A DNA stretch of 64,000 nt from a virus (taxonomy: Duplodnaviria > Heunggongvirae > Uroviricota > Caudoviricetes): positions 1 to 64,000 of the IMG/VR virus record IMGVR_UViG_3300033273_000374, one strand, 5' to 3'. Positions within the stretch are counted from its first letter, which is position 1, and every line of letters begins with the position of its first letter. The notes beneath the pieces are model-generated. The model was not told where the DNA came from. It did not search any database and saw only the letters and a program-made list of their open reading frames with translations. Positions 11,120 through 34,815 of the stretch are shown here, one piece after another. A program made the position numbers and the translations under genes.

Positions 11120-12013
11120 TTAGGTTCCCCAGGCATTTCCAAATAGGCTAATGTGGAGTCTTGGAGTAAATCTCCATCCTCTTTCCATACAGGCTTCTGC
11201 CACGTCTTTAACGTTGAGGGAATATTCTTCACTGCGTCCGCCCATTGGCATAAGGTAGACCGGACACTGGACTCCGGCGTCCCTATAAGCGTCCACAGCT
11301 CTTGCAACTTCGTTGAAATCATCCTCACTAGCGACAACAAACTTGAGATACATGTCACTACCGTCAACAAGGCTATACTCACGAGCAACAGCAGGCAAGA
11401 TAGCAGTTTCCCAAGGTTCTCCGCTAACACTAAGTTTTGGGGAACAACTCCAAGTGACTGTAAATCTGTCTTGGTCGTTGAGATAATTGAAGAAATCGTC
11501 GTGTAACTCTTGTGTAGTGTTTGTTTCAAATGTGACATTTTTCAAATCCTTCATACGTGGATGCTCAAATAAATCTATGTAGAGCTTTTGCCAAGCTAAC
11601 AAAGGCTCTCCGCCGGTTAATATTAAATGAATATCTTGACCATTGTCTTGTGTCCATTTACCATTGGGAGCAAGTGATAGCAAATGTTCAACCACTTCAT
11701 CTACTTCTGCAAGTTTATTAAAGTGTTTAAACTCTGGGTAGATACTTGCATATGTATCACACCCTGTGTGAATAATAGGCAAGTCGTTAAATTCTTTTGT
11801 AGTTTCATGTACGCCTGCATCAATAAGTGCTTTTACTTCTGCATTGTATCGCTGACCTTCTTTGTGTTGTTCCCAGCGATCTTTTTTTGTATCAACTCCA
11901 AAGTTCATACAACGGAAGTTACAACCAAATGTGCGTAAAAATACACTAGGTACTCCTACAAACTTGCCTTCGCCTTGTACACTGTAAAATGCTTCGCTGT
12001 ATCTAAGTTTCAT
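11120..12013 (-). CDS. queE: radical SAM 7-carboxy-7-deazaguanine synthase QueE
   Basis: N-terminal YSVQGEG motif and the C-x14-C-x-C cluster (FGCNFRC....) typical of QueE. Confidence 0.85.
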   Translation of the reverse strand: MKLRYSEAFYSVQGEGKFVGVPSVFLRTFGCNFRCMNFGVDTKKDRWEQHKEGQRYNAEVKALIDAGVHETTKEFNDLPIIHTGCDTYASIYPEFKHFNKLAEVDEVVEHLLSLAPNGKWTQDNGQDIHLILTGGEPLLAWQKLYIDLFEHPRMKDLKNVTFETNTTQELHDDFFNYLNDQDRFTVTWSCSPKLSVSGEPWETAILPAVAREYSLVDGSDMYLKFVVASEDDFNEVARAVDAYRDAGVQCPVYLMPMGGRSEEYSLNVKDVAEACMERGWRFTPRLHISLFGNAWGT

Positions 12014-12071
12014 TTGTGGCTTCCTATTAACTGCTTCATACGATGGATAACCTTTTTCATATACTGGTCAT

Positions 12072-12914
12072 TCAAACGTCTGTTTCATAGATTAATTCTC
12101 TTAATTGTGTTGTTGTTTTGGGCCATTCATTTAGTCCATAACATTTTATTTCATAACCTTCAATTCTAAGTCTGCGTTGCATGTCTGCTTCATCTAATAA
12201 AGATAAGTCTTTCATTTCTATGTTAATATTGTTTATTGTAGCATAAACAAGTTCTTTAATCAATCTATCTTTGTACAAATAAGGTTCGTTGGCTAACCAG
12301 TCTTTACCTAATACTTCTATCTCTTCTGTAGATCGAACAACATCTAGATCTAAAAATTTAGCCATAGATCGAAATGAGGTTACAAAATTATCTCTTATCC
12401 AATTGATAGGAAATTTAAAAACACGGTCGTTGTTGTAGTTTACAATTTGTTCATAACCGCCTTCTGAGTTGTGTTGATTGTACCACCACAGACTTAACCA
12501 TTCCCTTTGCTCCCAAATATCGTCACCTTCCCATTGAGACAGAGCATTTTCACGATCTTGTGCAACACCTTGATTTTTAGTGTAAAACCCAATTTTGTAA
12601 AATTTATTACTAGCATTCCATAGGTAATCATTTGGTTCTGGATATAGTAGAACAATTTTATCATATACACCTAGTACTTTTTTTATTTGAACTATTATGT
12701 CATCACTTTGTGTACGCACAGGGTGTACATGTGAATTTGAGATAGGTTGAATTAAAGCCTCATCTACAGTTTCAAATTGAATTAAATCATTGTTGTGACT
12801 AGTATGTCTAGCAGTAAATGGTCTTTGTTCAACTGGATATCTGCCTGTCATCCAATCAATGCACCATCCAGTAAACGATCCGTAACTACCAGCGTTATAT
12901 ACAATTATATGCAT
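12072..12914 (-). CDS. paralog A of a tandem pair; P-loop/sulfotransferase-like N-terminal motif (NAGSYGSFTGW)
   Basis: 280 aa. The last ~25 residues (...GYEIKCYGLNEWPKTTTQLRELIYE..) are nearly identical to paralog B at the nucleotide level. Confidence 0.6.
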   Translation of the reverse strand: MHIIVYNAGSYGSFTGWCIDWMTGRYPVEQRPFTARHTSHNNDLIQFETVDEALIQPISNSHVHPVRTQSDDIIVQIKKVLGVYDKIVLLYPEPNDYLWNASNKFYKIGFYTKNQGVAQDRENALSQWEGDDIWEQREWLSLWWYNQHNSEGGYEQIVNYNNDRVFKFPINWIRDNFVTSFRSMAKFLDLDVVRSTEEIEVLGKDWLANEPYLYKDRLIKELVYATINNINIEMKDLSLLDEADMQRRLRIEGYEIKCYGLNEWPKTTTQLRELIYETDV

Positions 12915-12931
12915 TATTCGTTGCTGAATCT

Positions 12932-13116
12932 TTCTTTGTGTTGTTCCCAGCGATCTTTTTTTGTATCAACTCCAAAGTTCATACAACTGCTTCATACGAT
13001 GGATAACCTTTTTCATATACTTGCCATTCAAATGTTTGCTTCATAAATTAACTCTCTCAGTTGTGTTGTTGTTTTGGGCCATTCATTTAGTCCATAACAT
13101 TTTATTTCATAACCTT
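12932..13116. repeat. 185-bp duplicate of 11858-11913 (queE codons ~35-52) joined to 12032-12160 (paralog 3' end and flank)
   Basis: Direct comparison of the two regions. A 118-bp stretch (queE 5' end and start codon) present at the first locus is absent from this copy. Confidence 0.8.
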
Positions 13117-13882
13117 TGTTCCGTAATTGGCGTTGTATTTGACTTTCGTCAATCAACGATAATCCATCCATAAACAAATTTTTATTATTGATTATAGCAT
13201 CAACTAGATCAGAAATCAATTTATCTTTGTTAACAAATATTTCTCGTTGTAACCAGTCTCTGTAAAGACTGTTGATTTCATCGCTGTTGCGTACTACTTC
13301 TAGTTCTAACCAATTTGCTATGTCGCACACTGTAAATTGAAAATTATCTCTTATGTTACTTATTGGCACAGTTTTAACATATTGTTTGTTAAGATTGTTT
13401 ACCTCATTAATACCTGACCCAACTACAAATATATCATGTAACAAAAAACTAAGTTGTTCTCTTAACTCCCATAAATTGGTGCCTTCCCATTTGTCCTCGT
13501 TTACTTTAAGCATATCTTTTATGTATTGCTTGTTGAACAAACCATTTTTGCTTGCTTTTGAATTACAGTTATTCATAATCCAAATAAAATTATCTAACTT
13601 GGGATACAAATAGAGGACTTTATCGTATACAGTGTGTAAAAGTTCAATTTGTGACTGTAATGATTGTACACCTTCATACATTGGATGCACCAATATTCCG
13701 TTGTGAGCTAATTCACATGCTTTTTCAACAGTTTTAGGATGTATCCTAGTCCATCCATGACTATTGAATACAGTGTTACCTACAAATGGTCTATAATCAA
13801 CAGGATATTTTCCTTGTAACCATTCAAGGGTCCATCCAATAAAATTTCCGTATGCACCAGCTGGGAATGCCACAACGTACAT
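13028..13882 (-). CDS. paralog B of the tandem pair (PAGAYGNFIGW N-terminal motif)
   Basis: 284 aa. Moderate similarity to paralog A through the body; identical C-terminus. Confidence 0.6.
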   Translation of the reverse strand: MYVVAFPAGAYGNFIGWTLEWLQGKYPVDYRPFVGNTVFNSHGWTRIHPKTVEKACELAHNGILVHPMYEGVQSLQSQIELLHTVYDKVLYLYPKLDNFIWIMNNCNSKASKNGLFNKQYIKDMLKVNEDKWEGTNLWELREQLSFLLHDIFVVGSGINEVNNLNKQYVKTVPISNIRDNFQFTVCDIANWLELEVVRNSDEINSLYRDWLQREIFVNKDKLISDLVDAIINNKNLFMDGLSLIDESQIQRQLRNKGYEIKCYGLNEWPKTTTQLRELIYEANI

Positions 13883-14428: not shown

Positions 14429-14457
14429 ATTGTACACTTATTTAGACGGTTTTGCAA
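14429..14457 (-). promoter_or_regulatory. sigma70-like promoter TTGCAA-N17-TACAAT upstream of queD
   Basis: -35 at 14452-14457, -10 at 14429-14434. An AAAAGGAG SD precedes the ATG at 14361. Confidence 0.5.
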
Positions 14458-15007
14458 GTTTTTTCTCAAGAATATCTGTTTTTACTGCTTGGAATGCCAT
14501 AACACTACGCATTTCTTTGCATCTACGCTGTGGACCTTTTCCAATGTGTGGAATGCTGCTATCAAACACTACCAACTTGCGAGGAACATACACACTGGCT
14601 CTTACTAAATCGTCAAAGTAGAAAACAGTTTCTCCGCCCCAATTGAGTTCCCAAGTTTTGTCTGTGTACAGCACACCAGTTATGCTTTCTCCTGCACTTG
14701 GCCAATCTGTGTGGATATCACCATCTAACCCAAATGTGTTTGCACTGGCCATGTTACGCACCATGGTGTAACTGTCATCGCAAAACTGCTCCATAAAACG
14801 ATTGCCAAGAGTCTGTACAATGTCAGGGGCACTCTCATGGTAGTCACGTTCTTTAAGATAATAAAAGCCTTGGAACCACTGTGGGTAATTGGGTTCAATT
14901 TTGTTGTCACTGACTTGACCAAACTGCCAGCGGTTTGCATACACTACATGAAAAAACAGTTCTTTTTGTTCTTCTTCTGTTATCCAGTCCATGTGTTCTT
15001 CAAGCAT
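14438..15007 (-). CDS. Fe(II)/2-oxoglutarate-dependent oxygenase-like protein
   Basis: HxD...H arrangement (DIHTDW ... GGETVFY ... IPHIGKG). Confidence 0.5.
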   Translation of the reverse strand: MLEEHMDWITEEEQKELFFHVVYANRWQFGQVSDNKIEPNYPQWFQGFYYLKERDYHESAPDIVQTLGNRFMEQFCDDSYTMVRNMASANTFGLDGDIHTDWPSAGESITGVLYTDKTWELNWGGETVFYFDDLVRASVYVPRKLVVFDSSIPHIGKGPQRRCKEMRSVMAFQAVKTDILEKKLAKPSK

Positions 15008-15752
15008 CTGTTCTTACCCTTTTGTTGTATTCTACTGCTTCTTTGAGTATGCTCAATAGATTGGGATCATACTGTTTGGCTGTATACAATATTGCACTGG
15101 TATCTTTTGGTAAACAGTGTCCACCCCATCCACGCTCTTTGGTAACATAACTGTGGTCATCTAAAATGCGTTTATCAACACACAAGTGGTGCCTTACTTG
15201 ATCAAAATCTACACCTAATGTTTCACACAAGTCGTACATTTGGTTAAAGAAACTGACCTTTAGAGCAAGGAAACTATTTTCCATATACTTGATAACTATT
15301 GCTTCTCGCATGGTTGATTCATACGTTGCTAGAGCAGGCCATTTCTCTTTAAACATGTTGATCCAAAACTTTGTGTCGCCACCTCCCATTATAGCATACT
15401 CTTGATTTTCAAAATCCTCTATTGCTGTTGCGCCACGTAAGAACTCCGGCGAGAACGTTATTTTGTCACGATGCTTGAATTTTTCATAACATTCTAAACT
15501 AAAGGTGCTTTTAATTAGCACCGGAACATCCTCATCAACAGCTTCAAGTACTTCTATCACATTGTCGTAATTACACGATCCGTCTTCGCGTTCAGGTGTG
15601 CTTACTGCAATCACAACTGCGTCATATGCACTTTTGGTTGATGATAACGTGTGTCCTTGATCAGGATCAATTATGTCAAAATGATGCAGATCTTTGAATG
15701 CATGGAAAAATGCTTTACCTACGTACCCATAACCGTATAATCTTATCTTCAA
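15000..15752 (-). CDS. short (250 aa) UDP-glucose/GDP-mannose dehydrogenase-family protein
   Basis: N-terminal Rossmann GYGYVGKAF and catalytic-Cys motif GWGGHCLPKDT. Lacks the C-terminal UDP-binding domain length. Confidence 0.55.
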   Translation of the reverse strand: MKIRLYGYGYVGKAFFHAFKDLHHFDIIDPDQGHTLSSTKSAYDAVVIAVSTPEREDGSCNYDNVIEVLEAVDEDVPVLIKSTFSLECYEKFKHRDKITFSPEFLRGATAIEDFENQEYAIMGGGDTKFWINMFKEKWPALATYESTMREAIVIKYMENSFLALKVSFFNQMYDLCETLGVDFDQVRHHLCVDKRILDDHSYVTKERGWGGHCLPKDTSAILYTAKQYDPNLLSILKEAVEYNKRVRTDA

Positions 15753-15949
15753 GATCGGGCACCTTTCTTAGCACGTTCAAATTGTCTTTCACGCAACATT
15801 TCAATACCATCTAATTGTTCGTCTTCACTTAGATGTCTCCATCCTCGTATCTCTTCAGGTGTTCTACCACAACCTAAACAGTATCCGTCATCGCCTTGTG
15901 TGCATACTTGTATACACGGTGAATATTTTGCTTTGGGCATTACCACCAC
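15749..15949 (-). CDS. DUF1289-like small Cys-rich (putative Fe-S) protein
   Basis: SPCIQVC...GYCLGCGRTPEEIRGW pattern. Confidence 0.5.
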   Translation of the reverse strand: MVVMPKAKYSPCIQVCTQGDDGYCLGCGRTPEEIRGWRHLSEDEQLDGIEMLRERQFERAKKGARS

Positions 15950-16524
15950 TCCTCATATGGAAATACAACCCATGTGTCGTCTTCAGCTTTGTTAATTTCA
16001 ATGCTGGTATAATCTACATCAAATGGGCTTGCAATGTTATTTACTATACTTGCAAACCTTACACTATGATGCCAAACTTTTTTCCATTGTGGATCACTGG
16101 GCAAACAGTGTGCCTGCCAATCATCTTTTATCCACTGGAATGTTGCTCCGGTGTCATTGATATCGTCTAGTAATAAAATGTTTGGAGGGTCCTTTTTAAA
16201 ATGACCCATTGCTGGATCATAGTAATCATTTTGTTCATACCCAAATGCATCTGCTGCCATCCAAAGTGCATGTTCTGGGCTGTTTTCAGAGTCTCGCAAA
16301 CGTACATCAATTGTTTCCATGCGTATGCCTGTGTAATGACTCATCAGCACTGCTGGCACAAGCCCGCCACGTGTGATGCCTACAATGTAGTTGGGCGTCC
16401 AGTTATCCTTATACATTTGGCGCACAATATCATGCACACCTTTTTTGATTTGTTCATCTGTTAGATACAGTTTGTTAGTCATTGATTGTCTTCCCATGTG
16501 GTGCTGGTTTTCCATCTGGACCAA
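15940..16524 (-). CDS. type I purine phosphoribosyltransferase (HGPRT/XGPRT-like); likely start at MTNKLYL (16482)
   Basis: PRPP-binding motif ILLLDDINDTGATF. The upstream thioesterase stop at 16475 favours the internal ATG at 16480-16482. Confidence 0.7.
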   Translation of the reverse strand: MVQMENQHHMGRQSMTNKLYLTDEQIKKGVHDIVRQMYKDNWTPNYIVGITRGGLVPAVLMSHYTGIRMETIDVRLRDSENSPEHALWMAADAFGYEQNDYYDPAMGHFKKDPPNILLLDDINDTGATFQWIKDDWQAHCLPSDPQWKKVWHHSVRFASIVNNIASPFDVDYTSIEINKAEDDTWVVFPYEEWW

Positions 16525-16840
16525 GATTTACAAACGTTATTCTATCAACACTTGTAATGGTTTTTTCTGTGCGTTTGTTTCTTACATCACAACTGATAGT
16601 GATGCTTGTGTTACCAAACTCTACTACTTCCATGCCTATTTCAATAATATCGCCTCTGATAGCACTGTGTGCAAAGTCAATATTACTCATACTGCGTGTT
16701 ACCACCCTGTCATTGTCTAGTTGGCAACTACAATATATGTATGCTTCTTCGTCTATCCAGTCAAGCACACGACCACCAAACAGTGTTCCGTTACTGTTCA
16801 AGTCCTTGTGTGCTATCATTTTTCTTGTAAAGTATTTCAA
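16475..16840 (-). CDS. hotdog-fold acyl-CoA thioesterase (YbgC/YciA-like)
   Basis: HKDLNSNGTLFGGRVLDWIDEEA consensus of 4HBT-type thioesterases. Confidence 0.7.
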   Translation of the reverse strand: MKYFTRKMIAHKDLNSNGTLFGGRVLDWIDEEAYIYCSCQLDNDRVVTRSMSNIDFAHSAIRGDIIEIGMEVVEFGNTSITISCDVRNKRTEKTITSVDRITFVNLGPDGKPAPHGKTIND

Positions 16841-18845: not shown

Positions 18846-21800
18846 CTAGAAGTTTAATTTTACACTAATACCAGCACGTTTTTCAATTTCTTTTTTCACA
18901 CCTGTTATGGTATCTCGTAGTTCTATAAATGCACCTACCTTGCCTTGCAGTCCTAACTTTGTAGCGAACTCGTCTACTTGTTTGATACCTGTTTTTGTAA
19001 TATCAAAATTGTAGTATGTGCCAAAATCAATTTCTCTGTTGCTGTTGCGGAAGTCTACTGTGCGCAATTCTGTGTTTACATTTCCGTCTAGTGTTCTGCC
19101 TGTTGGCACACGATATGTAAATTTTGCACTTTCAACTGTAACAGGTTGCGATATTGCAAAACCCAATGTGTGTCCGTCTGCAGGACCAAGTTCATAGCCA
19201 ACAGTAGCAGTTGAACTGATTACATCTTCTGCGTCAACTAACATGCTGTTGCTTTTATCAAAGTTTACACTGGTATATCCTAATCCAGCCTGTGCATAAA
19301 ACCCACCATAGCGATAGTTGTAGTTTGCATAAACTGTGGTGCTGTCTTTTGTTGTACCTAGTGTGCCTGAAAGACTGTTGCCTAAATAGTGTCCATCGCT
19401 CTTACCAAATCCAATTTCAATGTTGTTGTTTTCGTTGATGGACCACGGAAACGCACCATGCTGATCATGATTCATATAGCCTGCAAAGTAGTTTACTGCA
19501 CCCATTTGCTCTGCAACACTTGCAGTTCGTGTGTCAATGTCAGCACTAACCATGCTGCTCAAGTCAATGTAGAAGTCACGTTCAAAACTGTCAAGCACCA
19601 TTACATTTGTAAGTGCTGTAAGTTGTTGTGCTGCAACCCCAATGACATTAGCACCTCCAGATACAGTGCTTACTCCACCATCAGTACGTCCACTTGTTGG
19701 AATGCCTGTGGCGCCCACTGGGCGTGTAGCAGCATCCATGTCTAGTATGCCATGCCCATGCAAGTTCTCGTCGTACACATTGTCGCCGTAACTGTTAAGC
19801 ACTTCTTCTTTGGCAGTGACCAGCACCAACTGTACCAAGTGCTTGCCTTTCATGTGTGGCCACATTTGATGCAATATTGCAATAGCACCACTCACAACAG
19901 GTGCTGCCATACTGGTGCCTGTCATGTTGGTGTAGCCGCCACCTGACTTTGTGCTGTCTACCATGTAGCCATCTGCTAGTATGAAAAAGTCTTTTATCTG
20001 AGCAGCATCTTTACACACACCATCTACATAGGTTGCACACACTGTGCCTGCTTTGTTGCCATACTGGTTTCCTCTGTCATATGATCCAACAATGATCATT
20101 TGTCCATCAAGTATGAGATTACCGTTAGCATCGGTAGCAGTGGCCATTTGATTCATGCCTGCACTATAACTTGTGCCTGCATTGCCTGCAGCCTTTACCA
20201 ATACCATTTCGTTGCCTAGTGCTGCTTTCCAGTTAACTGCTTCGTTGACTGCACCATTGTAGCCATTGACACCATAGTACCAATGGTCACTGTGCCATAC
20301 ACCGTCACCATCTTGTACAAGACTGTTTTTAAAGTTGGTGTCAAGTCTAGTCTCTGCACTGACATTGATAGCAACTGCACCTAAATTTTTACCCCACTCT
20401 GCTGCTCTTTGTGCATTGAAGAAACTGAATGCATAACCATCAGCAACTTTTGCAATAGCAAGTTTAGCATCAAACGCTGCACCATGCATGCCTATGTCAT
20501 TCTTTTCTGCAGCAACGATACCTGCAACATGAGTGCCGTGATCACTTGCATTGCTAATACCACTACCAGTGTAGTCTATAGTGTGTGCAATGTTGTCATC
20601 TAAATCTATGTGTGATGTATCTGCACCTGTGTCAGCAACTACAACTAGACTGCCTTTACCCGTCCAGCCTCTACTGTAAGCAACATCAAAGTTACTTTGT
20701 AGCAAATGGTTGTTTCCAAGTCCTGTGGTTTTAAATACACTGTATTCATCTGTGCGATAGTGGTTACGATCTTCAACATAACCTGGTGTGCGTGTGCCCA
20801 TGTCAGGATGATCGTTGCCAATTACTTCTGTATCAGTTTCGTTCTCCGCATCAGTGCCAGCACTGAGTTCCTCACGCATTAGTTCAAGTTCTTCGTTGCG
20901 TTGGCTAGCAACTGGATACTTTGTTACAGGCTCTCTGTAACGCAATGATTGGTTTGTCAGTTCTGTTTCGGTAGTGCCGTCGCTGTAGGTTGTTATTGTG
21001 TAAGTATCTGTGGCATACACATGAGTGTGTATTTCGGGTGTAACAAATGTTATAATACGATATGTAACAAGCCAATTGCCTTCTACACGTTCCTCAACTG
21101 CAGAGCTTTGTATCTCTTCTGGCAAGTATTCTTTATCCAAGCGCAACCAATATTCCGCTTCTGTGCGTGTTTCTTGGTTTACAATTGTAATAGCTTCTTC
21201 TGTAGTTTCTTCCGCAACAGGTTCAGAATCAACAACTTCTTCTACTGGTTGGTCAACAACTTCTTCTACTTCTTCTACAACTGGCTCAGTTGTTTCTTCC
21301 TCTTCAACTGGTTCTACATTTTCATCAATTGTTTCATCTACCGGTTGTGGTTCAACTTCTTCAACAATAGGGTCACTTATTTCTACATCAGGATCAGTAG
21401 TTTCTTCTACAACTTCTACTTCAGTATCAGGCAATTCCTCTACAATAGGATCCGTTAATTCTTCTACAACTGGATCAGTTTCTTCTACAACTTCTTCTGG
21501 TTGTTCCTCTACCTCAAGATCTACTGTTTCTGCTGTTGGATCTGTTTCCTCTACTTCGGTTTGGTATAGTTGTACTTGTGTATTCTCATGGAAGTCATCT
21601 ATAGAAAAATTTTCATCTGCGCCAATGTCGGCATGATCAATATACCCATTACTTTCCATAAGAACATATTCTTTTATATAATGATATTCTTCGGATGCAT
21701 CATCGTACTGTCCAGTTTCAACTACTCTAGACCACCATTCTTCTTTGTTATCATAATATAGTTTTTTGTAGCCTTTGAGAATATTGTAAGCACTATCAAG

Positions 21801-26173: not shown

Positions 26174-26633
26174 TTAGTATTCCTGTTATTTGGCAAGTGT
26201 ACTTGGGTTGTCTACCTGCATTGACACTTCCGTGCAGCATGGTATGGTCAAAAATCAAATAGTCACCTGCAACCCAATTTGTTACAGGAGTATCTTCTAC
26301 ATCCATAAAATGCCCTGGCTTCCAATCCTCTAAAAAAAAATTGTAACGTCGTATTTTACTTATGTCTGTAATGTTGTACTGATCCATAAAGTAAGTGTAA
26401 GTGTCGTAGTGTAGTGGAATAAAGTTTCCAGGCTGTTGTTCAATACAACTGCAACTGTAAATATCAAAATTTGCATCAGCAAATGAACGTATGTAATTTG
26501 GTGCATAGCCAAATATTTGTTTGTGACGTGTATTTGTTTCTGTATAAAAATTATCTAGCGGCGTTCCTACCATGTCTTTCCAGTTTAAGTCCATGATTGG
26601 AATAAATTTTTTTGCTGGTAAATGATAGATCAT
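26157..26633 (-). CDS. cupin/Fe-oxygenase-like protein, paralog 1 (158 aa)
   Basis: HxD...H spacing (PLHYDT ... MLHGS). Tandem with a homolog. Confidence 0.35.
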   Translation of the reverse strand: MIYHLPAKKFIPIMDLNWKDMVGTPLDNFYTETNTRHKQIFGYAPNYIRSFADANFDIYSCSCIEQQPGNFIPLHYDTYTYFMDQYNITDISKIRRYNFFLEDWKPGHFMDVEDTPVTNWVAGDYLIFDHTMLHGSVNAGRQPKYTCQITGILNENIA

Positions 26634-27151
26634 TCGTGTCCTGTTACCTGTAGAGTGTATCTTGGTTCAAGTCCAATGTTAGCAGCCATGTGTTCAACAT
26701 CTCCTCTCCACCAAATGTAATCGCCGCGCTTCCAACTAACAATCGGATTGCCTGCTATTTCAAAATAATGTCCTGATTTCCAATTTTCTAAGAACACTAT
26801 AATACGTTGAATTTGATTTACTTCTACATCAAATAGTTGTCTGTATTTTTTATAAGTGTCTCTGTGTGTGGGTAAAACTACGCCTGTAGGCATTCTATAA
26901 AAACTAGTGCCTGTATTTTTAAGTCCGTATATGTTTTTCAACATTTGCACTAGATCGTTTGTATAACCTGTTTGTGGTTTACGCATATCACATAGATCAC
27001 CTACAAAAGGCGGAGTGTAGCCTTGTACTGTCCACGTATCTATATCTTGGGAATTATTAAAGGGCTCAGACTGATAATCAAGGTCTATGTGACTATCGTC
27101 CCAAAAAGGATCTATATAGCCTATGTGCCAGTTACTATCGTGTGTTGCCAT
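26630..27151 (-). CDS. cupin/Fe-oxygenase-like protein, paralog 2 (173 aa)
   Basis: PTHRDT ... VEHMAANIG. Shares the WK(P/S)GH(F/Y)..(D/E) block with paralog 1. Confidence 0.35.
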   Translation of the reverse strand: MATHDSNWHIGYIDPFWDDSHIDLDYQSEPFNNSQDIDTWTVQGYTPPFVGDLCDMRKPQTGYTNDLVQMLKNIYGLKNTGTSFYRMPTGVVLPTHRDTYKKYRQLFDVEVNQIQRIIVFLENWKSGHYFEIAGNPIVSWKRGDYIWWRGDVEHMAANIGLEPRYTLQVTGHE

Positions 27152-28418
27152 AATGTATTACCTTACTTGCTTCGCTGTTAAATTTACGCCATGGATCTAC
27201 CACAATGCTATCCATTGGTATTGTACAATACAAACTGTCTGTGTTACTGTCTTGGTGCATGTATTTGTAGGTTGTGCTTGCACTATGTGCTAATAACATT
27301 ACACAAGATTGTTTAGGTTCATTATTGTCTCCAGTCAATGGATCAATGTATGTTACACTTTTGCCCATTTCCTCAACATAATGACCGATCAATAAACTAT
27401 AACTTCCATCAATGTATTCTACACCAGGCTTGTATGCTTTGCCATGTATATAAATTTCCATTGCATTTTCGTCTGCAAGTTTTACTAACAGTTTAGCAAG
27501 GTTGTGTGCTTGCTTTTCTCTTGCATTCATTATAGCGTCAAATAAATCATATCCTAAATCTAATTCTTGTGCCATGTAGCGCAAGGCAATATTGTCACGC
27601 GGATGGCAAGCACCACCATCACCCATCCCTGCAGTCATATACTGCGGGCCCATGATCCGTTTGGTTGACTCTGCTAGTGCCTGGGTAACCACATCAACAT
27701 TGATATTGCCCTGCTTTACTGCCACATCCTGTATCATGTTTGCCAGTCCAATTTTGGTACTGATAAATGTGTTGTAAAACACTTTGATACATTCGCATTC
27801 GTCCCAAGTACCAACAACATACCTGGGATCATTTTCAATTACTGTTTTATAAAAGTCTACTAATAGTTGTGCATCACCTGTGGTAGTGCCATCTTCAGTA
27901 CCAACCATTACCATTTCAGGATTTAAAAAGTCCCATGCAACACTGCCCATAGCAATCAAGTATGGGTTGTATGCAAAACGTGTGTTTGTTATCAGTGGAA
28001 CAAATTCTCTGCGAACTGTGCCCGGAAGCACTGTAGAGATAAGCACAATCATTTGTGCATTGTGCATGTGTTCGTTACACTCACGCAATACTTGTTTTAC
28101 AATGTCGTAGTTAAAATCTTTAGGTTCAAGATGTGCAGTAGGCACACGACCATCATAACTTGCTTCATGCGGAGTTGGCACTGCTACAAAAACAATCTTA
28201 GAAAACTCAACTGCTTGTTTGATAGTGTCTACGATGTTTACATATTCACTTGAAACTGGTGCAACATCGTAACCTTTGACACTGTGTCCTTTTTTTGCCA
28301 TTTCCTCTGCACATGGCATTCCAAGTTTTCCGCAACCTATAAAAGCAATATTCATTGTGATGTGTACCATTTGTATGCAGTACGGATTATACTGTCTAAA
28401 TCGTGATTTGCTTTCCAT
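27135..28418 (-). CDS. ugd: UDP-glucose 6-dehydrogenase-family nucleotide-sugar dehydrogenase; probable start at MNIAFIG (28355)
   Basis: Rossmann IAFIGCGKLG and catalytic Cys motif GGACHPRD. Full three-domain length. Confidence 0.8.
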   Translation of the reverse strand: MESKSRFRQYNPYCIQMVHITMNIAFIGCGKLGMPCAEEMAKKGHSVKGYDVAPVSSEYVNIVDTIKQAVEFSKIVFVAVPTPHEASYDGRVPTAHLEPKDFNYDIVKQVLRECNEHMHNAQMIVLISTVLPGTVRREFVPLITNTRFAYNPYLIAMGSVAWDFLNPEMVMVGTEDGTTTGDAQLLVDFYKTVIENDPRYVVGTWDECECIKVFYNTFISTKIGLANMIQDVAVKQGNINVDVVTQALAESTKRIMGPQYMTAGMGDGGACHPRDNIALRYMAQELDLGYDLFDAIMNAREKQAHNLAKLLVKLADENAMEIYIHGKAYKPGVEYIDGSYSLLIGHYVEEMGKSVTYIDPLTGDNNEPKQSCVMLLAHSASTTYKYMHQDSNTDSLYCTIPMDSIVVDPWRKFNSEASKVIHYGNTR

Positions 28419-29299
28419 TTTAGGATGGTGTTGGCTGCAACAGTATCTGCTACAAGTGTACCAGGATCTCCTGGTCTAGGATCACCAAATTTTAGATCTA
28501 CTGAGAGAGGAGTAACACGGTTAATACTGTCAATAATCTCGAGATTGCTGTAGCCTCTTTCGCCACCTAAATTGAAAGTGTGTGCACCATTAGTCGTTTC
28601 TAACAGTTCAATACTATTTAGCACACCACGTGCCACATCCTCAACATGCACATAATCACGCACACAAGTTCCATCTGGCGTATCAAAGTTGTTACCAAAC
28701 AGTGTAAAATCTTTGCCAGCCATGGTGCGCTCTATGGCTTTTGCAATGATGTGAGTTGCATTGGGTTCTTGACCAAACTCGCCCTCAGGATCTGCACCTG
28801 CAACATTAAAGAAACGCAAACTTACACTGTTGAAATTGTATGCATGTGCGTAATCATTGAGTATGATTTCCATCATGCGTTTACTCCAACCATATGGGTT
28901 GCAAGGAGTATGAGGCATGTTTTCTGCACAAACATCTTCTTCTGGTTCACCGTAACAGGCTGCACTACTAGCAAACACAAATTTATCAATGCCTTTGTTG
29001 CGCACACTATCCAAGAGGTCAAGTGTTTGTGCAATGTTGTTTTGATAGTAAGGTGCAGGATCTATCACACTTGGTCCAACAAGACTGGTAGCACCTATGT
29101 GTACAACTGCATCTACACCATTAAACATATCATCACTGATATCACCATATGAGGTAAGTTGTACTTTGTCAAGGTAATTGTGTTTAATGTGTCTACGGTC
29201 AATTGCCACAACTTCGTACAGCAGACTTTTTAACATTTTGCAGACAGCAGAGCCAATGTATCCACCGGCTCCTGTTACCATTACTCTCTGTGCTGTCAT
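28352..29299 (-). CDS. galE: NAD-dependent nucleotide-sugar 4-epimerase (GalE-like SDR)
   Basis: VTGAGGYIGS Rossmann motif, the S...YxxxK triad (YGWSKRMME) and extended-SDR length. Confidence 0.8.
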   Translation of the reverse strand: MTAQRVMVTGAGGYIGSAVCKMLKSLLYEVVAIDRRHIKHNYLDKVQLTSYGDISDDMFNGVDAVVHIGATSLVGPSVIDPAPYYQNNIAQTLDLLDSVRNKGIDKFVFASSAACYGEPEEDVCAENMPHTPCNPYGWSKRMMEIILNDYAHAYNFNSVSLRFFNVAGADPEGEFGQEPNATHIIAKAIERTMAGKDFTLFGNNFDTPDGTCVRDYVHVEDVARGVLNSIELLETTNGAHTFNLGGERGYSNLEIIDSINRVTPLSVDLKFGDPRPGDPGTLVADTVAANTILKWKANHDLDSIIRTAYKWYTSQ

Positions 29300-30489
29300 G
29301 CTGTTGGATCCTTGTTGTATTTTGATTCTGCTACATGGTCTCTGTAACGATTACCACTGCGCTTCCATTTTTCACCTTTGCCTTCCATGATATCAAGCAT
29401 ACGATCAATGGTACCATCAGTCCAGTCACTGATCTTGCCCATGTTGTGACTGGGTGCTTCAAGTGCATTTAACACTTTGTCCATAGCATCACTCTTGTTC
29501 CATGGCACATACAATCTAGTGTAATCGTTTGCAAATGTTTCTGGAAAACTGCGATATGCAGGATATACAACATTACATCCAAGTGCATCTGCTTCGCTAA
29601 CAGTGTTGCTGACCCAGTCTTGTAACGCACAGTTAAACATAACCTTACTGTCGTTTACAATGTTGTAGTAGTCATTTTTCTGCAGATCTTTGTAGATTGT
29701 TAGCAGTCCGTGCTTTTCCATTTCTAAAGCACGATCCAAATAACGTTGATTGTTACTGCGTAATGGACCGCCACTGAGTACTGCACACTCAATGTTTGGA
29801 TTTACATTGCGTATCATCTGGATCAAGTCCATGTAGAAGTCTGGCTGTTTCTCTTGATCAAAACGTGCTGCAAATACAATTCTGTCTGCACGTTCACTCC
29901 AAGGCTTGATGTTGTTTCCAACACGCCCTTGCACTTCTGCCTTGCCAAAACTCAATCCACTGATGTTGTAGATAGGTGCAGTCCAATTTGCAATACGCAT
30001 GTGTGCTACCATTTCTTCGTTAGTAGCAAGAATATTTACATTAGGAATCTCGTTACACATCTGCTCATACAAGCTCATCCACTTGCTCATACCCCATACA
30101 TGCACAAAGTCATCTGGATCAACTGCTTGTGCTAAACAGCGCAAGTAGATTGTAGGACGTTGTGTGTATGGAATCTGACACATGATGTAAGGCAAACTTT
30201 CAATGCCAGGTTGGAACATGTCTTCAAAGAAAACAACATCCTGTCCAGAACATTCACCGTTGCGCATCATTTGTACAAGATTCATAAGTTGACTCATGCC
30301 AAAGTATGAACGTCCATGTGCGTCAAGTACTTGTCCTACGCTGATGCTTTTGGTGTTGTCAATGGTTTCACCAGGCACTACAACATAGTCTATGCCGCGA
30401 CGTTTAAAGACTTCTTCACTCCACTGTTGTAATTGTAGTGTGTAGCGTCCTTCGTACGGCTCAAGCCCCATGTAAAATAGTTTACGCAT
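29296..30489 (-). CDS. GT-B fold glycosyltransferase (GT4-like)
   Basis: 397 aa. C-terminal E-x7-E-like region and FAARFDQEKQP resemble the GT4 donor-binding region. No unique motif. Confidence 0.5.
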   Translation of the reverse strand: MRKLFYMGLEPYEGRYTLQLQQWSEEVFKRRGIDYVVVPGETIDNTKSISVGQVLDAHGRSYFGMSQLMNLVQMMRNGECSGQDVVFFEDMFQPGIESLPYIMCQIPYTQRPTIYLRCLAQAVDPDDFVHVWGMSKWMSLYEQMCNEIPNVNILATNEEMVAHMRIANWTAPIYNISGLSFGKAEVQGRVGNNIKPWSERADRIVFAARFDQEKQPDFYMDLIQMIRNVNPNIECAVLSGGPLRSNNQRYLDRALEMEKHGLLTIYKDLQKNDYYNIVNDSKVMFNCALQDWVSNTVSEADALGCNVVYPAYRSFPETFANDYTRLYVPWNKSDAMDKVLNALEAPSHNMGKISDWTDGTIDRMLDIMEGKGEKWKRSGNRYRDHVAESKYNKDPTA

Positions 30490-30732: not shown

Positions 30733-31254
30733 TTAGTTTTTTACGTTATAGCGAACAATGCAGCCGTTTTCATTGTCTTCGCTAACTTCAATGTGAATTT
30801 CACGGCTAGGATATTTGTTGTTGATGTGTTCAAACATTTCGTCTGCAATCATTTCACAACTCTTATAGTCCAGTGTCATTACATCTTCACTGAACAATCT
30901 CTGTAACCAACGTGAGAACTGAATAAATTCAATTTCTCTATCGTTGTGGAACACTTCAATTGATACCTTGAAGTGAAACATGTGTCTGTGTGGATAACCG
31001 AGAAAACTTACGTCATCCCAATCACCAGTTGCTAACTTTGGATCATCCAAGGCAGCAGGATACTTGTGTATACCTTCTTTCTGGAATGTGACCCAAATCA
31101 TACGTTTGCTTGTTGACTGTGTGTGCTGTTGTACAGCCGCTTGTCTCATCATGTCTAGTGTTGCATTATCAATATCTTCAGACATATCACCAATCCCATA
31201 TCTGTGCGTAGTAACCTTTACCATTGGTGTCGCCGCCATCGTTATAGACTTCAC
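30733..31254 (-). CDS. hypothetical protein, possibly a second T-fold/PTPS-like protein
   Basis: GYPHRHMFHFKVSIEV resembles the QueD/PTPS H-x-H..F.V motif. Weak. Confidence 0.3.
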   Translation of the reverse strand: MKSITMAATPMVKVTTHRYGIGDMSEDIDNATLDMMRQAAVQQHTQSTSKRMIWVTFQKEGIHKYPAALDDPKLATGDWDDVSFLGYPHRHMFHFKVSIEVFHNDREIEFIQFSRWLQRLFSEDVMTLDYKSCEMIADEMFEHINNKYPSREIHIEVSEDNENGCIVRYNVKN

Positions 31255-31891
31255 CGTCTTTGTAGCCTACTAACTCAAGTACATTGTCACTGTTTGGTAT
31301 TTGTGTAGTATAAAACTCTAATGCAGTGATGTCAAGTTCTTCTCCATCAGTTTCAATTGGGTATACACCAAACGCACCTTTTTCACTGCTACAACCAAAG
31401 AAAACATAAGGAGTTGGAATCTCGCCGTTGTCCATAGGCTTTGGTTCGCCTTCCTCACCTTCGGTGTCATCCTCATCATAGAAACCATTTGGATATAGTA
31501 CTTCGTCAAGATCAAGTACATGTTCGGTAAGTTTTGGATTGTACTTTTGTTTGAACTCATTCCACTCCATGGCGCTTACTAGATCGTTAAGAATTTCTGC
31601 ACCATAATCATAACCAGATACTTCTTCAATGCTGATGTATGCACTGTCTGAATTTGCTCCATACACATGTTCGATATCATCTAATTCGTTCCAATGTCCT
31701 AACCAGCGTGGGTCTTCGTCATCGTAGATAGGATTATCATCATTTTCTTCGTATGGATCCCACATAGCATGTGCAATAATCTGTTCTTCTTCAAAAGGCA
31801 TCCAGAAGTCGTATTGCTCTTCTGTGAGACGTCCTAACACAATTTCACTGCCATAGCCGTGAATTGTTACTTTAAAGAATCTTTTAGACAT
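31187..31891 (-). CDS. hypothetical acidic protein (234 aa)
   Basis: ORF track. Confidence 0.5.
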   Translation of the reverse strand: MSKRFFKVTIHGYGSEIVLGRLTEEQYDFWMPFEEEQIIAHAMWDPYEENDDNPIYDDEDPRWLGHWNELDDIEHVYGANSDSAYISIEEVSGYDYGAEILNDLVSAMEWNEFKQKYNPKLTEHVLDLDEVLYPNGFYDEDDTEGEEGEPKPMDNGEIPTPYVFFGCSSEKGAFGVYPIETDGEELDITALEFYTTQIPNSDNVLELVGYKDGEVYNDGGDTNGKGYYAQIWDW

Positions 31892-32471
31892 TGCTATCTC
31901 TTTTCTGTTTTTCTAGCATATAGTCACTGTAACCTAGTTTTTTGATGCGTTTCTCAAACTGGATATCGCTTTCGATTACCTTGTCTTGTGTGTATTTAGA
32001 CCACGGCGTAAACACCTTAGTATTTTGTAAGTCGTGTAAACGATGTGTCCACACACCTGCATTTGTTGCACTAAAGTCTTTGTCATCTACTTTGATACAG
32101 GCATTGTAGTTGAACAATTTGATGTATGGCACTTTTACACTGATCATGCTGATAAAATTATCATGTTCATCATAACAACCTTCAAGCACCCATTCACTGT
32201 GAATCACATCAAAGTCCAATGTTACCATGAAGCTTCTGTATAACTTGTTATTTAGAACAGCACGAATAAGAATATCCCAGTCATCGCTGGGTTCAAAACT
32301 TTGATTCGCGCCTAAGTAGATATGATCGCATTTGTGTTTTTGTGCAGTGCGCACAATCTCATCTGCGTCTTGTATGCCCACAACAAACAGTGTGCGCATG
32401 CCATATGCAGGAGTATGCTCAATTTCGTTGCCTACAAAGAAAGCAACACCGTCGTGCCCATCACGTTGCAT
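31884..32471 (-). CDS. hypothetical protein (195 aa)
   Basis: ORF track. Confidence 0.5.
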   Translation of the reverse strand: MQRDGHDGVAFFVGNEIEHTPAYGMRTLFVVGIQDADEIVRTAQKHKCDHIYLGANQSFEPSDDWDILIRAVLNNKLYRSFMVTLDFDVIHSEWVLEGCYDEHDNFISMISVKVPYIKLFNYNACIKVDDKDFSATNAGVWTHRLHDLQNTKVFTPWSKYTQDKVIESDIQFEKRIKKLGYSDYMLEKQKRDSNV

Positions 32472-32713
32472 CAGTGAGTCTGCCTGATGTCGTAAATGTT
32501 TTCTTCTTCTGGGCTAGATTCAAATGCTTTGTATGCATTTCTTAAATCTTCTAATTCGTCACGAATGCTAAGTTTAAGTTTTTTTAGTTCTTTGAGCTTT
32601 TGATCTTTTTCTGCATTGTATTGATTTTTGAGTTCGCCCTCAATTTTGTCTGTGCTTTTGCTCAATCGTTTGTGTCTGTCTTCTAGATACAGGATACGAT
32701 CTTCTAAATCCAT
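32471..32713 (-). CDS. hypothetical coiled-coil protein (80 aa)
   Basis: ORF track. Heptad-like charged sequence. Confidence 0.4.
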   Translation of the reverse strand: MDLEDRILYLEDRHKRLSKSTDKIEGELKNQYNAEKDQKLKELKKLKLSIRDELEDLRNAYKAFESSPEEENIYDIRQTH

Positions 32714-32714
32714 T

Positions 32715-34190
32715 TCACACCTCTGTGAATAAGTTGTTAAACTGTGTAGTGGCGTTCTGGGTTTTCTTGCCCTTAAAGCCTCTGGTTCCTATTATGTCCA
32801 TAAAGTATATACTATTACCAGCAATTATGTCAAGTGATTTTTCCTTGGTTGGAGCACTAAAAATATCATTTACAATGTCACGGAAACGTTGTGTGTTTGA
32901 CCATAACATAGCGGGCATAACACCAGCATCATACTGTCTGTTTGCTTCTTGCACTGCGTTGATGTGCGTCCAAACATTATGACCCATTAACAGTGCATAA
33001 CTGAAACTGTCCCATGAAGTTTTACCTTCCTTGCCAATCTTGTTCAGCATGCCTGGACCATAATGACAGATGTCCATCATGCGCATGTGTTCACTGATTG
33101 GACTGTCCTCCCATATGGTGTGTATGCCATCTGCTGTTACACCATCTTTGTACAGTCTTGTATCGTTAAAATACTTTTTGTCATCAGCAGTTGGGTTCAT
33201 GCGATATACCCACTTCTGATCATGTGGTGTAACCACATTGGTGTACACTTGCCCATTTGCCGTAGCAAGGAAAGGACTAGCACAATCAAAACTGATTGTT
33301 AGTGTAGGATTGTAGTTTGCTCTTACTGCACGTTGTACATCTGTGAGCAGTGTTGCCCACTCTAGTTTACTGGTGCCTAAGAAGTGCATCCAGTCATGCT
33401 TGCCGCTTTGTAGCAGTCCATCGTAGTGCAAGTGTACAATGCGTTCCAGTATGAGATGAATGTCACACATGTTCTGACCACCCATGCCCCATCCATCAAA
33501 GTGGTTGGTTGGATACTGTGTATCATCACAGTAGTGTTTTACGTGATCATACCATTCGTGTGCATTTTGATGATTGTCACCTTGTAACACATTGAGGAAT
33601 CGTGTTCCACCATTTTCTTTGCCTTTGCGATTGGCAATAAAATATTCGTTGTTGAACTTGGTTGCTTCTACTGCTTCGTGCACCTGTGTTATGCAACTGT
33701 TGCGACTTGCTTTCTCATCATGCACAACCCAACTTGGTATATCAAGTGCCATGCTGTAATTAAAGTAACTGTCCAGCCAAGTCAACACTTGTTTACGTTT
33801 TTTATTAGCATTAGGACAGCCACTGCCTGCACGCCAGTCACCTTCCCAAACACCCTTAGCAATTTGGAATCCTCCACTGTCACCAACCAAGATGTTGTCT
33901 GGTCTGTTCATGCCTTTGGTGTCACGCACCATGTCTTCTTTTGGACTGTGTCGTGTTGTGTCTAAGTCAGCATGCCCTGCACTGTACAACGACCATTTGT
34001 ATTGAAACACACCTTTGTCACTGAGCCAGTTCATTGCTTCAAGTGCGGTGCCTTGCAAGTGCTTTGGAATACGATTTTGATCTACATACTGATCAAAACG
34101 TTGCTTGCCAACATAGGTGCTGTAAAAACTGCTCAATGCTGGCAGGAATACTGCATAATCAGATTGTGATTTTGTTAGATTCTTGTTCAT
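32715..34190 (-). CDS. tRNA-guanine transglycosylase (TGT)-family protein, DpdA-like candidate DNA 7-deazaguanine transglycosylase
   Basis: NILVGDSGGFQIAKG matches the TGT substrate-binding DSGGFQ motif. 491 aa, so longer than canonical TGT/DpdA. Confidence 0.6.
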   Translation of the reverse strand: MNKNLTKSQSDYAVFLPALSSFYSTYVGKQRFDQYVDQNRIPKHLQGTALEAMNWLSDKGVFQYKWSLYSAGHADLDTTRHSPKEDMVRDTKGMNRPDNILVGDSGGFQIAKGVWEGDWRAGSGCPNANKKRKQVLTWLDSYFNYSMALDIPSWVVHDEKASRNSCITQVHEAVEATKFNNEYFIANRKGKENGGTRFLNVLQGDNHQNAHEWYDHVKHYCDDTQYPTNHFDGWGMGGQNMCDIHLILERIVHLHYDGLLQSGKHDWMHFLGTSKLEWATLLTDVQRAVRANYNPTLTISFDCASPFLATANGQVYTNVVTPHDQKWVYRMNPTADDKKYFNDTRLYKDGVTADGIHTIWEDSPISEHMRMMDICHYGPGMLNKIGKEGKTSWDSFSYALLMGHNVWTHINAVQEANRQYDAGVMPAMLWSNTQRFRDIVNDIFSAPTKEKSLDIIAGNSIYFMDIIGTRGFKGKKTQNATTQFNNLFTEV

Positions 34191-34815
34191 TTATTTGTTG
34201 TAATAACCAATAGGTTTGGTGGTCATAACTTTCATAGTAGTATTTTACATTGTGTAGATCAACATTGTCAATAATCCAGTCTTGCCACTGTTTTCTTATG
34301 TTGTTTACAGGATCTTTGGTGTAGTTGATTGGATCATGTAACCATTTTTCTGTTGGCATGGTTGTGTCTGTCCATCTACATATCTTCTCCCATACACTGT
34401 GTGTATCATCATGTTTGAAGAAAGTAATGCTGTTGTGATCAAACGGGGTATAAAAATACTGTTGTACCTCTGTGTGATCGTCAAATACAACTCTGTCTTG
34501 TATCAGTTTCAGAACTGGTTCACATTTCATATCTTCGTCATGAGTATGATATGTGTTAAAGTATTCACTGATACCTGCTATCCAGCGTTTTATTGGATCT
34601 CGCAGTAAACATATTACATGTACATTCTTTTTAATGTGTTCGTTGTGTATTACAGTCCAACCTCTTTCACCTTCAAGCCAGGAACGCCAGTAACTGCTAC
34701 TACATTTTGGAATACATAGAATTGCAAGCTGACCACAAGGACTTAATATGTGTTGTCCTCGTGGATGCCCTTTGTGTTCCCACCAATTCCAATTCTGGAT
34801 ATCTTCAAAGTTCAT
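34159..34815 (-). CDS. sulfotransferase-fold protein (tentative)
   Basis: 5'-PSB-like IPKCSSSYW and 3'-PB-like LLRDPIKRWIAGIS motifs. Confidence 0.4.
   Translation of the reverse strand: MNFEDIQNWNWWEHKGHPRGQHILSPCGQLAILCIPKCSSSYWRSWLEGERGWTVIHNEHIKKNVHVICLLRDPIKRWIAGISEYFNTYHTHDEDMKCEPVLKLIQDRVVFDDHTEVQQYFYTPFDHNSITFFKHDDTHSVWEKICRWTDTTMPTEKWLHDPINYTKDPVNNIRKQWQDWIIDNVDLHNVKYYYESYDHQTYWLLQQINEQESNKITI

Follow-up and report, generated by a model that had tools for sequence, protein, structure and literature searches.

Phage phiST encodes FolE, QueD, QueE, DpdL and DpdA3 and no QueC, and the guanine of its DNA is completely replaced by 2'-deoxy-7-deazaguanosine (dDG) (PMC10516641). A survey published in 2023 described phages in which DpdL is encoded without QueC, and in it DpdL marks the branch of the pathway that leads to 7-deazaguanine (DG) (PMC10516641). 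Here we examine a related locus in a stretch of 64,000 nucleotides (positions 1 to 64,000 of the IMG/VR virus record IMGVR_UViG_3300033273_000374, Caudoviricetes; hereafter the window), in which an earlier note made from the sequence had located FolE, QueD, QueE, a protein of the tRNA-guanine transglycosylase (TGT) family, a YhhQ-family transporter and an atypical PP-loop protein. All six open reading frames (ORFs) are indeed present, on the minus strand, at the coordinates given below. Judged by sequence homology, the window carries a QueC-independent, DpdL-type 7-deazaguanine DNA-modification module, a branch already described in 2023. What looks new with respect to the described DpdL branch is a divergent DpdA clade, a strict coupling to a GT4-family glycosyltransferase and GalE, a conserved protein of 195 amino acids (aa) and an association with a purine phosphoribosyltransferase (PRTase), for none of which a discussion was found in the literature.

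Functional statements throughout are based on homology, on predicted folds and on which genes are neighbours, and the E-values of local searches relate to small databases. The window was compared with 50,697 phage records and with 80 related IMG/VR loci, in which the DpdA-like gene is 58-67% identical and at most 10 kb of flank is present on each side; co-occurrence counts refer to those 29 of these 80 loci whose sequence continues for at least 8 kb downstream of the DpdA-like gene. Being close kin, the 80 loci may owe part of their common gene order to inheritance and not to independent maintenance. The genome of the Pseudomonas jumbo phage PA5oct was searched up to its last ~780 bases (terminal repeat).

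DpdL and the absence of QueC

The gene at 30733-31254 (minus strand), 1.5 kb downstream of the DpdA-like gene, encodes a DpdL homolog, a T-fold protein and predicted decarboxylase of 7-carboxy-7-deazaguanine (CDG), which was recovered among the window ORFs by a phmmer match to CGPG_00067 of phiST (8e-11). Start-codon analysis places its likely start at the ATG at 31185, giving a protein of 150 aa. This protein matches phrog_17812 (4e-31), and its motif LGYPHRHMF fits the LxxxHRHxF signature that replaces CxxxHGH and separates DpdL from QueD. It is 64% identical to the homolog of Sinorhizobium phage Phosso, 60% to EST35_0318 of PA5oct (PA5oct-like Pseudomonas jumbo phages) and 54% to that of Acidovorax phage ACP17. 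DpdL is found in all 29 related loci and QueC in none, and in the window and PA5oct alike DpdL is co-encoded with FolE, QueD, QueE and DpdA without QueC.

The three genes for CDG synthesis are also on the minus strand. FolE, a GTP cyclohydrolase I (24505-25185), matches Pfam GTP_cyclohydroI (3e-62) and, above the cut-off, NCBIfam NF006824 (9e-98). QueD, a 6-carboxytetrahydropterin synthase of the phage type (13882-14361), matches Pfam PTPS (1e-13), phrog_2389 'QueD-like' (1e-41) and the QueD of phiST (2e-36), with which it shares the motif CxxxHGY instead of the textbook CxxxHGH. QueE, the radical-SAM CDG synthase (11120-12013), matches phrog_2076 'QueE-like' over its full length (4e-53), the NCBIfam QueE models partially (1e-11 to 1e-12) and Pfam Radical_SAM weakly, and is 40% and 35% identical to the QueE proteins of Synechococcus phage BUCT-ZZ01 and of Moby, respectively. 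FolE occurs in 27 and QueD in 20 of the 29 related loci. These family assignments support the earlier proposal that FolE, QueD and QueE together make CDG. The N-terminal region of the window QueE contains C31-x3-C35 only, searches with the regular expressions CxxxCxxC and Cx14CxxC having found nothing, and the third cluster ligand must be located elsewhere in the protein; by eye, the QueE proteins of Moby and PA5oct present a similar cysteine picture.

The absence of QueC, which the earlier note had pointed out, is borne out by profile scans and six-frame searches of the window. No window ORF of at least 200 aa matches the QueC PHROG, and the best hit of the E. coli and Moby QueC proteins among six-frame ORFs of at least 50 aa has an E-value of 0.09. 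QueC is also absent from the 80 related loci and from the PA5oct genome. Two side leads were rejected: PA5oct gp064 (annotated as TilS) as a hidden QueC (E 0.04), and Moby as a QueC-less model, QueC being adjacent to the Moby DpdA gene. Whereas the earlier note regarded the missing QueC as an open puzzle, possibly solved by a non-canonical nitrile-forming enzyme, the absence has a published explanation because the window encodes the overlooked DpdL, the described marker of the QueC-less phages (PMC10516641). FolE, QueD, QueE, DpdL and DpdA without QueC constitute the published dDG gene set, and dDG is therefore the best prediction for the modified nucleoside, in line with the earlier suspicion that the final base may not be simple preQ0, which it probably is not. 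Literature searches on DpdL, DpdA3 and glycosylated deazaguanine yielded nothing further than the 2023 paper (PMC10516641).

The likeness of the window to phiST thus comprises CDG synthesis, a T-fold DpdL protein with the LxxxHRHxF signature, a TGT-superfamily transglycosylase, the QueD motif and the lack of QueC, and extends to a homologous purine PRTase, which in phiST is encoded elsewhere in the genome. Unlike that of the window, the phiST cluster also contains a MazG/dUTPase-like protein and a P-loop protein, and its transglycosylase is the 259-aa DpdA3.

A divergent clade of DpdA-family proteins

The gene at 32715-34190 (minus strand) encodes a protein of 491 aa with the motif GDSGGFQ at residues 103-109, and fold and profile links identify it as a predicted, divergent DpdA-family DNA-guanine transglycosylase. 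The earlier note had proposed a DpdA-type identity that depended on the presence of a TGT fold, and this fold is present: the predicted structure, a model of moderate confidence, forms a TGT-type (beta/alpha)8 barrel, and its top structural match is the DNA enzyme DpdA. Neither phmmer nor a 20-sequence profile found a match among PDB sequences. The protein has matches in over 7,395 clusters at 90% identity, all of them unnamed, and among 50%-identity representatives an exhaustive search by profile recovered 1,084 clusters at E <=1e-3. With a low-diversity alignment (A1, Neff 1.5) hhalign gave nothing significant, and the informative alignment was one of 93 diverse family members. The profile built from it reaches the DpdA of ACP17 (HMM 1e-10, hhalign 97%), the TGT-like DpdA of Moby (8e-9, hhalign 96%) and E. 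coli TGT (hhalign 86%), and scarcely reaches phiST DpdA3 (CGPG_00065; HMM 0.003 in a small database, hhalign 73% over 82 columns that include HFLG).

In the hhalign alignment to E. coli TGT, D104 (within GDSGGFQ), D150 and D302 (within FDCASP) correspond to D89, D143 and D264, respectively. By this alignment, D104 would be the general acid/base of the DSGGxQ motif and the other two the substrate-binding and nucleophile aspartates. All three residues, as well as H269-x-L-G, are shared by 92-93 of the 93 family members, and in the C-terminal part of the family H404 and N405 alone are conserved. TGT enzymes exchange the base via a covalent Asp-ribosyl intermediate, and the same is presumed for the 491-aa protein. 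The fold and the catalytic aspartates are thus shared with TGT and with the bacterial Dpd system (DpdA/DpdB/DpdC); in contrast to these, the window lacks DpdB and DpdC, preQ0 is not the expected substrate, and the 491-aa protein has neither the zinc motif nor a PF01702 or NCBIfam match.

Within the DpdA family, tblastn with the 491-aa protein recovers the PA5oct-like phages, Vibrio phage 2.275.O and Phosso only, and tblastn with the ACP17 protein finds Vibrio phage nt-1 and its relatives and not PA5oct. By these sequence comparisons, the ACP17 DpdA belongs to the type of nt-1 (DpdA2), and the 491-aa family is most aptly seen as a clade of its own, with longer proteins and with the ACP17/nt-1 type as its nearest named neighbour, the subfamily labels DpdA2 and DpdA3 being provisional. 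The surroundings of nt-1 QueE were rejected as the DpdA2 site, DpdA2 lying elsewhere in the nt-1 genome. This clade of 490-540 aa escapes every curated model of Pfam, PHROG and NCBIfam, and it travels with DpdL, the GT4 glycosyltransferase, the 195-aa protein and often a xanthine/guanine PRTase.

Several cultured phages carry comparable loci. In ACP17, BUCT-ZZ01 and the Xanthomonas phages X1/BUDD, the genes for FolE, QueD, QueE, DpdL, GT4 and DpdA form a cluster, the GT4 of BUCT-ZZ01 is 70% identical to that of the window, and a PRTase (BUCT-ZZ01) and a 195-aa homolog (ACP17) are encoded as well. They differ from the window in their DpdA proteins of 416-424 aa, which are BLAST-detectable from nt-1 DpdA2, whereas the window family is linked to them by profile only (1e-10). 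No report on the modified base of these phages was found in the literature. Among cultured phages, the nearest homolog of the 491-aa protein is EST35_0316 of PA5oct (Wroclawvirus), with 33% identity; it is followed by GT4 and DpdL and, 2 kb further on, by PRTase and QueE, with FolE, QueD and a 195-aa homolog encoded elsewhere and QueC lacking. PA5oct differs from the window in its low sequence identity, in having only a weak 172-aa match to GalE and in lacking YhhQ. Besides DpdL, PA5oct has two QueD-like genes, gp230 (19206-19724 of the PA5oct segment L102) and gp226 (21501-21971 of L102), the latter being the better match to the window QueD (5e-32, compared with 4e-8 for gp230). A 'deazaguanine synthesis/incorporation system' has been listed for PA5oct (Iyer et al., 2021; PMC7824862), and its DNA is resistant to several restriction enzymes that have G-containing sites, a pattern that has been read as a GA/GG-specific modification (PMC12191111) and that fits post-replicative insertion. 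PA5oct, ACP17 and BUCT-ZZ01 are thus three cultured phages with the same gene combination, which makes the prediction directly testable. There is also a practical side, as PA5oct-like phages are candidates for phage therapy and are targeted by modification-sensing nucleases.

An ORF of 218 aa (34159-34815, minus strand) overlaps the start of the DpdA-like gene and is found in 29 of the 80 related loci. By eye it shows sulfotransferase-like motifs (IPKCSSS and LLRDPIKRWIAGISEY), which Pfam, PHROG and NCBIfam do not support.

Partner genes and the identity of the modified base

Downstream of the DpdA-like gene, the window has the order DpdA, 195-aa protein, 234-aa protein, DpdL and GT4. The GT4-family (GT-B) glycosyltransferase of 397 aa (29296-30489, minus strand) matches Pfam Glycos_transf_1 (PF00534; 5.7e-7, 29.7 bits against a cut-off of 26.4). 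Its profile matches the GT4 enzymes WlaC, WbaZ and CapJ in the PDB at ~1e-3, a search of the PDB with the single sequence having given nothing useful. The (D/E)x7E motif begins with D in the window clade and with E in PA5oct and ACP17. Over thousands of metagenomic copies, many of them marine, GT4 is 82-91% identical, compared with 63-65% for DpdA. GT4 homologs adjoin DpdA or DpdL in PA5oct (DpdA-like, GT4, DpdL ... PRTase, QueE), ACP17 (195-aa homolog, DpdA, GT4, DpdL, QueE), X1/BUDD (GT4, DpdA, DpdL, QueE in X1) and BUCT-ZZ01 (QueE, PRTase, x, QueD, FolE, x, DpdA, DpdL, GT4, x being other genes).

GT4 is followed by GalE, a UDP-glucose 4-epimerase of 315 aa (28352-29299, minus strand; TIGR01179 6e-89, 298.1 bits against a cut-off of 262.3; Pfam Epimerase 2e-52), whose gene overlaps that of GT4 by 4 bases, and by an NDP-sugar (UDP-glucose-type) 6-dehydrogenase (UGDH; 27135-28418, minus strand; phrog_9148 3e-97; TIGR03026 3e-48, below the cut-off). 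UGDH is present in only 1 of the 80 related loci and represents a lineage-specific addition to the sugar operon. A short NDP-sugar-dehydrogenase-like protein without the C-terminal UDP-binding domain is encoded at 15000-15752 (minus strand; Pfam UDPG_MGDP_dh 1e-24), and homologs of it are found in the marine contigs L016 and L017 and in Campylobacter phage CP220 (CPT_0019, 13011-13781 of the segment L003, 5e-12), two genes from QueE. The linkage of GT4 and GalE to the DpdA-like gene is as tight as that of DpdL and FolE and is also seen in the sequences L005, L015, L016-L018, L001 and L008. Between UGDH and FolE (25295-27151, minus strand) lie genes for two small cupin or Asp/Arg-hydroxylase-like proteins and a weakly aminotransferase-like protein, which have overlapping stop and start codons, occur in 2-3 of the 80 related loci and may represent a lineage-specific sugar tailoring.

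The conserved 195-aa protein (31884-32471, minus strand) is present in 77 of the 80 related loci and in all 29 with at least 8 kb downstream. Homologs adjoin DpdA in ACP17 (5e-22) and in the sequences L005 and L016, and the PA5oct homolog is gp121 (6e-47). Searches of Pfam, PHROG, NCBIfam and the PDB gave no match for the protein, the hits of its profile to 'Cake' designed repeats being spurious, and it is regarded as a candidate component of the pathway. Its 234-aa neighbour gave nothing useful against the PDB.

The xanthine/guanine-type purine PRTase (15940-16524, minus strand) matches Pfam Pribosyltran above the cut-off (5e-10). Its top PDB matches are the purine PRTase 1vdm (5.7e-8) and XGPRT (7e-4), and the NCBIfam xanthine PRTase model matches below its cut-off (9e-12). 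A tblastn search of the 50,697 phage records recovered homologs only in three phages of the phiST group with measured dDG, in BUCT-ZZ01, with the gene placed between those for QueE and QueD, and in two Brevundimonas phages, with FolE as its neighbour; in PA5oct the homolog adjoins QueE. Of the 29 related loci, 10 contain the PRTase, and homologs are located in the sequences L004 (28218-28646), L015 (8007-8468), L014 (6989-7474) and L001 (15949-16383). Because of this family assignment and the association with deazaguanine phages, the PRTase most likely recycles the guanine released by base exchange to GMP, and it could alternatively make a deazaguanine nucleotide.

We consider it about an even chance (a probability of roughly 0.5) that plain dDG is inserted into the DNA after replication by the DpdL-type module. 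By homology, FolE would convert GTP to dihydroneopterin triphosphate (H2NTP), QueD this to 6-carboxytetrahydropterin (CPH4), and QueE this to CDG. Following the phiST precedent, DpdL would decarboxylate CDG to free 7-deazaguanine, and the 491-aa enzyme would exchange it for guanine in duplex phage DNA after replication by TGT-type aspartate chemistry, producing dDG. The dDG would shield the DNA from restriction enzymes with G-containing sites. The PRTase would turn the guanine set free by the exchange into GMP, from which GTP, the precursor of the pathway, can be regenerated, and GT4, GalE and the 195-aa protein would act as conserved partners. GT4, the 195-aa protein and the PRTase represent concrete candidates for missing steps of the published QueC-less route to 7-deazaguanine DNA.

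Several points weigh against plain dDG made in this way. The window DpdL is 29% identical to that of phiST. The 491-aa protein has no match in Pfam (including PF01702), PHROGs or NCBIfam, and the alignment of 93 sequences shows no conserved cysteine cluster corresponding to the TGT zinc motif CxCxxC...H. The visible sequence represents 64 kb of the genome, and a host QueC could turn phage-made CDG into preQ0. Moreover, the linkage of GT4 and GalE to DpdA is not explained by plain dDG: in phiST, the sole DpdL phage with measured dDG, no GT4 homolog was detected by phage-wide tblastn and neither a GT4 nor a 195-aa homolog in the first 50 kb of its 79-kb genome. Finally, the decarboxylase activity of DpdL is a prediction, and the co-expression of DpdL and DpdA of phiST and ACP17 in E. 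coli produced no dDG, for which the authors suggested that unknown enzymes were possibly missing (PMC10516641).

The coupling to GT4 and GalE raises the question of whether the base is plain dDG at all, and a further decorated, probably glycosylated, 7-deazaguanine derivative is a tentative, rather unlikely alternative. GalE would then supply UDP-galactose or a related sugar, and GT4 would attach it to the deazaguanine, acting on DNA or on the base prior to its insertion. In T4, a GT-B alpha- or beta-glucosyltransferase decorates hydroxymethylcytosine in DNA from a UDP-sugar; this is an analogy only, no sequence relationship being claimed, and the acceptor of the window GT4 may not be DNA. The frequencies of GT4 (29/29) and GalE (27/29) in the related loci equal those of DpdL and FolE, GT4 adjoins DpdA or DpdL in five distant lineages with differing gene orders, all 16 phage records that hold GT4 also hold DpdL, and the genes for GT4, GalE and UGDH mutually overlap in the window. 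The high identity of GT4 among metagenomic copies, with (D/E)x7E kept, and the failed reconstitution with DpdL and DpdA alone (PMC10516641) point in the same direction. On the other hand, C7 of 7-deazaguanine bears no evident hydroxyl or amine group to which a sugar could be O- or N-linked, dDG is made in phiST in the absence of this GT4, no glycosylated deazapurine was found in the literature search, the GT4 acceptor could be a protein or a polysaccharide, and the gene order of the 80 closely related loci is partly inherited. In its extended form, in which GT4 and GalE act on the deazaguanine pathway in the highly abundant aquatic/jumbo clade, PA5oct, ACP17, X1 and BUCT-ZZ01 and the virion DNA bears a sugar-carrying 7-deazaguanine, we hold this idea to be unlikely. 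If true, it would represent, to our knowledge, the first glycosylated purine in DNA, and GT4, the 195-aa protein and/or the PRTase would be the 'unknown enzymes' that were lacking in the 2023 reconstitution with DpdL and DpdA.

Insertion of another known 7-deazaguanine, namely preQ0 (made by a host QueC from phage CDG, or imported by YhhQ), 2'-deoxy-7-carboxy-7-deazaguanosine (dCDG) or 2'-deoxy-7-amido-7-deazaguanosine (dADG), appears improbable. QueC is encoded by many hosts, and the window YhhQ is a true member of the preQ0/preQ1 transporter family. A homolog of the short sugar-dehydrogenase-like gene lies close to QueE in the QueC-less CP220. The DNA of CP220 contains dADG, and that of STSV-2 contains dCDG (PMC10516641). 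Yet DpdL, the marker of the DG branch in the 2023 survey (PMC10516641), is present and strictly conserved, YhhQ occurs in no relatives, no amidotransferase is linked to the module, the AsnB-like 370-aa protein of the window being unlinked, and the window DpdA groups with the ACP17-type enzymes that are co-encoded with DpdL. The question of how the base enters DNA leads to a route at the nucleotide level, which we regard as quite improbable. In it, the PRTase would combine phosphoribosyl pyrophosphate (PRPP) with 7-deazaguanine or CDG to a nucleoside monophosphate, reduction and phosphorylation would lead on to 7-deaza-dGTP, and the phage DNA polymerase would incorporate this, the DpdA-like protein having a secondary role in proofreading or top-up. 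The PRTase is essentially confined, among the 50,697 phage records, to phages with deazaguanine genes, adjoins FolE and a dNMP kinase in the two Brevundimonas phages, lies beside QueE in PA5oct and has xanthine/guanine PRTases as best matches, and a nucleotide pool would ease the explanation of the complete replacement in phiST and of the ADG nucleoside in CP220-infected cells (PMC10516641). Against it stand the universal conservation of a DpdA homolog with intact catalytic aspartates, the presence of the PRTase within 10 kb in just 10 of the 29 related loci, the guanine recycling that accounts for the PRTase equally well, the lack of an identified dedicated dGTPase or kinase in the window, and the PA5oct restriction pattern, which was read as motif-specific and not total (PMC12191111).

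A last alternative is that DNA is not modified at all and that the genes, as auxiliary metabolism, boost host queuosine/tRNA modification or serve to make a pterin glycoside with FolE, a PTPS-like enzyme, the sugar epimerase and the glycosyltransferase. As a mere lead, the joint occurrence of genes for FolE, a PTPS-family protein and a glycosyltransferase recalls the synthesis of pteridine glycosides in cyanobacteria, the host of BUCT-ZZ01 is Synechococcus elongatus, and DNA as the substrate of the 491-aa protein is itself a prediction. This is nevertheless very improbable: the chemistry in which QueE and DpdL act is specifically that of deazapurines, the DNA enzyme DpdA is the top structural match of the 491-aa protein, and the DNA polymerase gene lies beside the module in 79 of the 80 loci; PA5oct DNA withstands restriction enzymes that have G-containing sites (PMC12191111), and DpdA has been reported as a hallmark of DNA modification in every phage tested (PMC10516641). 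The preferred reading remains the post-replicative insertion of plain dDG.

YhhQ, the PP-loop protein and the wider window

The YhhQ/COG1738 7-deazapurine precursor transporter (22801-23586, minus strand) matches Vut_1 (4e-20, 73 bits against a cut-off of 27.2) and TIGR00697 (6e-27, 94.7 bits against 50.95). Of the role proposed for it earlier, the membership in the family therefore stands, and the place in the module does not: YhhQ is found in none of the 80 related loci and is absent from PA5oct, and it is an accessory of this genome outside the conserved system. Its C-terminus is a Lys/Pro/Ala-rich basic tail of ~45 residues (KPKAEPEKPAKKAPAKKAPAKPRAPRKPRAKKE), unusual for a membrane transporter.

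The 370-aa protein (54132-55244, minus strand) contains SGGYDS and has the PP-loop ATP-pyrophosphatase fold. It shows no QueC match in Pfam, NCBIfam or PHROG and an E-value of 0.63 to Moby QueC in phmmer, and among PP-loop ATPase folds QueC is not the closest to it, the protein being AsnB-like. About 50 homologs in a collection of 5.8 billion proteins form a phage-only family, none of them in the 50,697 phage records, and in other contigs (L010-L013) the gene is usually preceded by one for a TctC-like substrate-binding protein and has no deazaguanine genes nearby. The protein is also absent from the 80 related loci and PA5oct, and for reasons of fold, distribution and genomic context it was dismissed as a candidate non-canonical QueC. 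Its upstream neighbour of 401 aa (54132-56460 region, minus strand) has a homolog beside FolE in the sequence L005.

The window is phage-like DNA with genes nearly all on the minus strand and a GC content of ~0.40, and it encodes a T4-type family-B DNA polymerase (36556-39216). A megablast search with 13 kb of the window gave no nucleotide-level match in the 50,697 phage records. Contigs with close relatives of window proteins reach 320-362 kb, and the 64-kb window probably belongs to a phage genome of large or jumbo size.

Further genes were observed near the module and beyond it. The stretch from QueD to the PRTase also encodes a 189-aa protein (14438-15007, minus strand), which PHROGs assigns to endonuclease V and which has a weak Pfam match to 2-oxoglutarate-Fe(II) oxygenases, and a 4HBT thioesterase (16475-16840, minus strand). 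A second radical-SAM protein (43455-44303, minus strand; Pfam 2e-10) lies near a strong match to the phrog_3704 'ferredoxin' (41178-41858, minus strand; 9e-103), neither of which was linked to the deazaguanine genes. The sole tRNA of the window is a tRNA-Ser (GCT) at 50-141 (plus strand). A DNA methyltransferase (3354-4349, minus strand; phrog_67 5e-47) may represent a second DNA modification in this genome.

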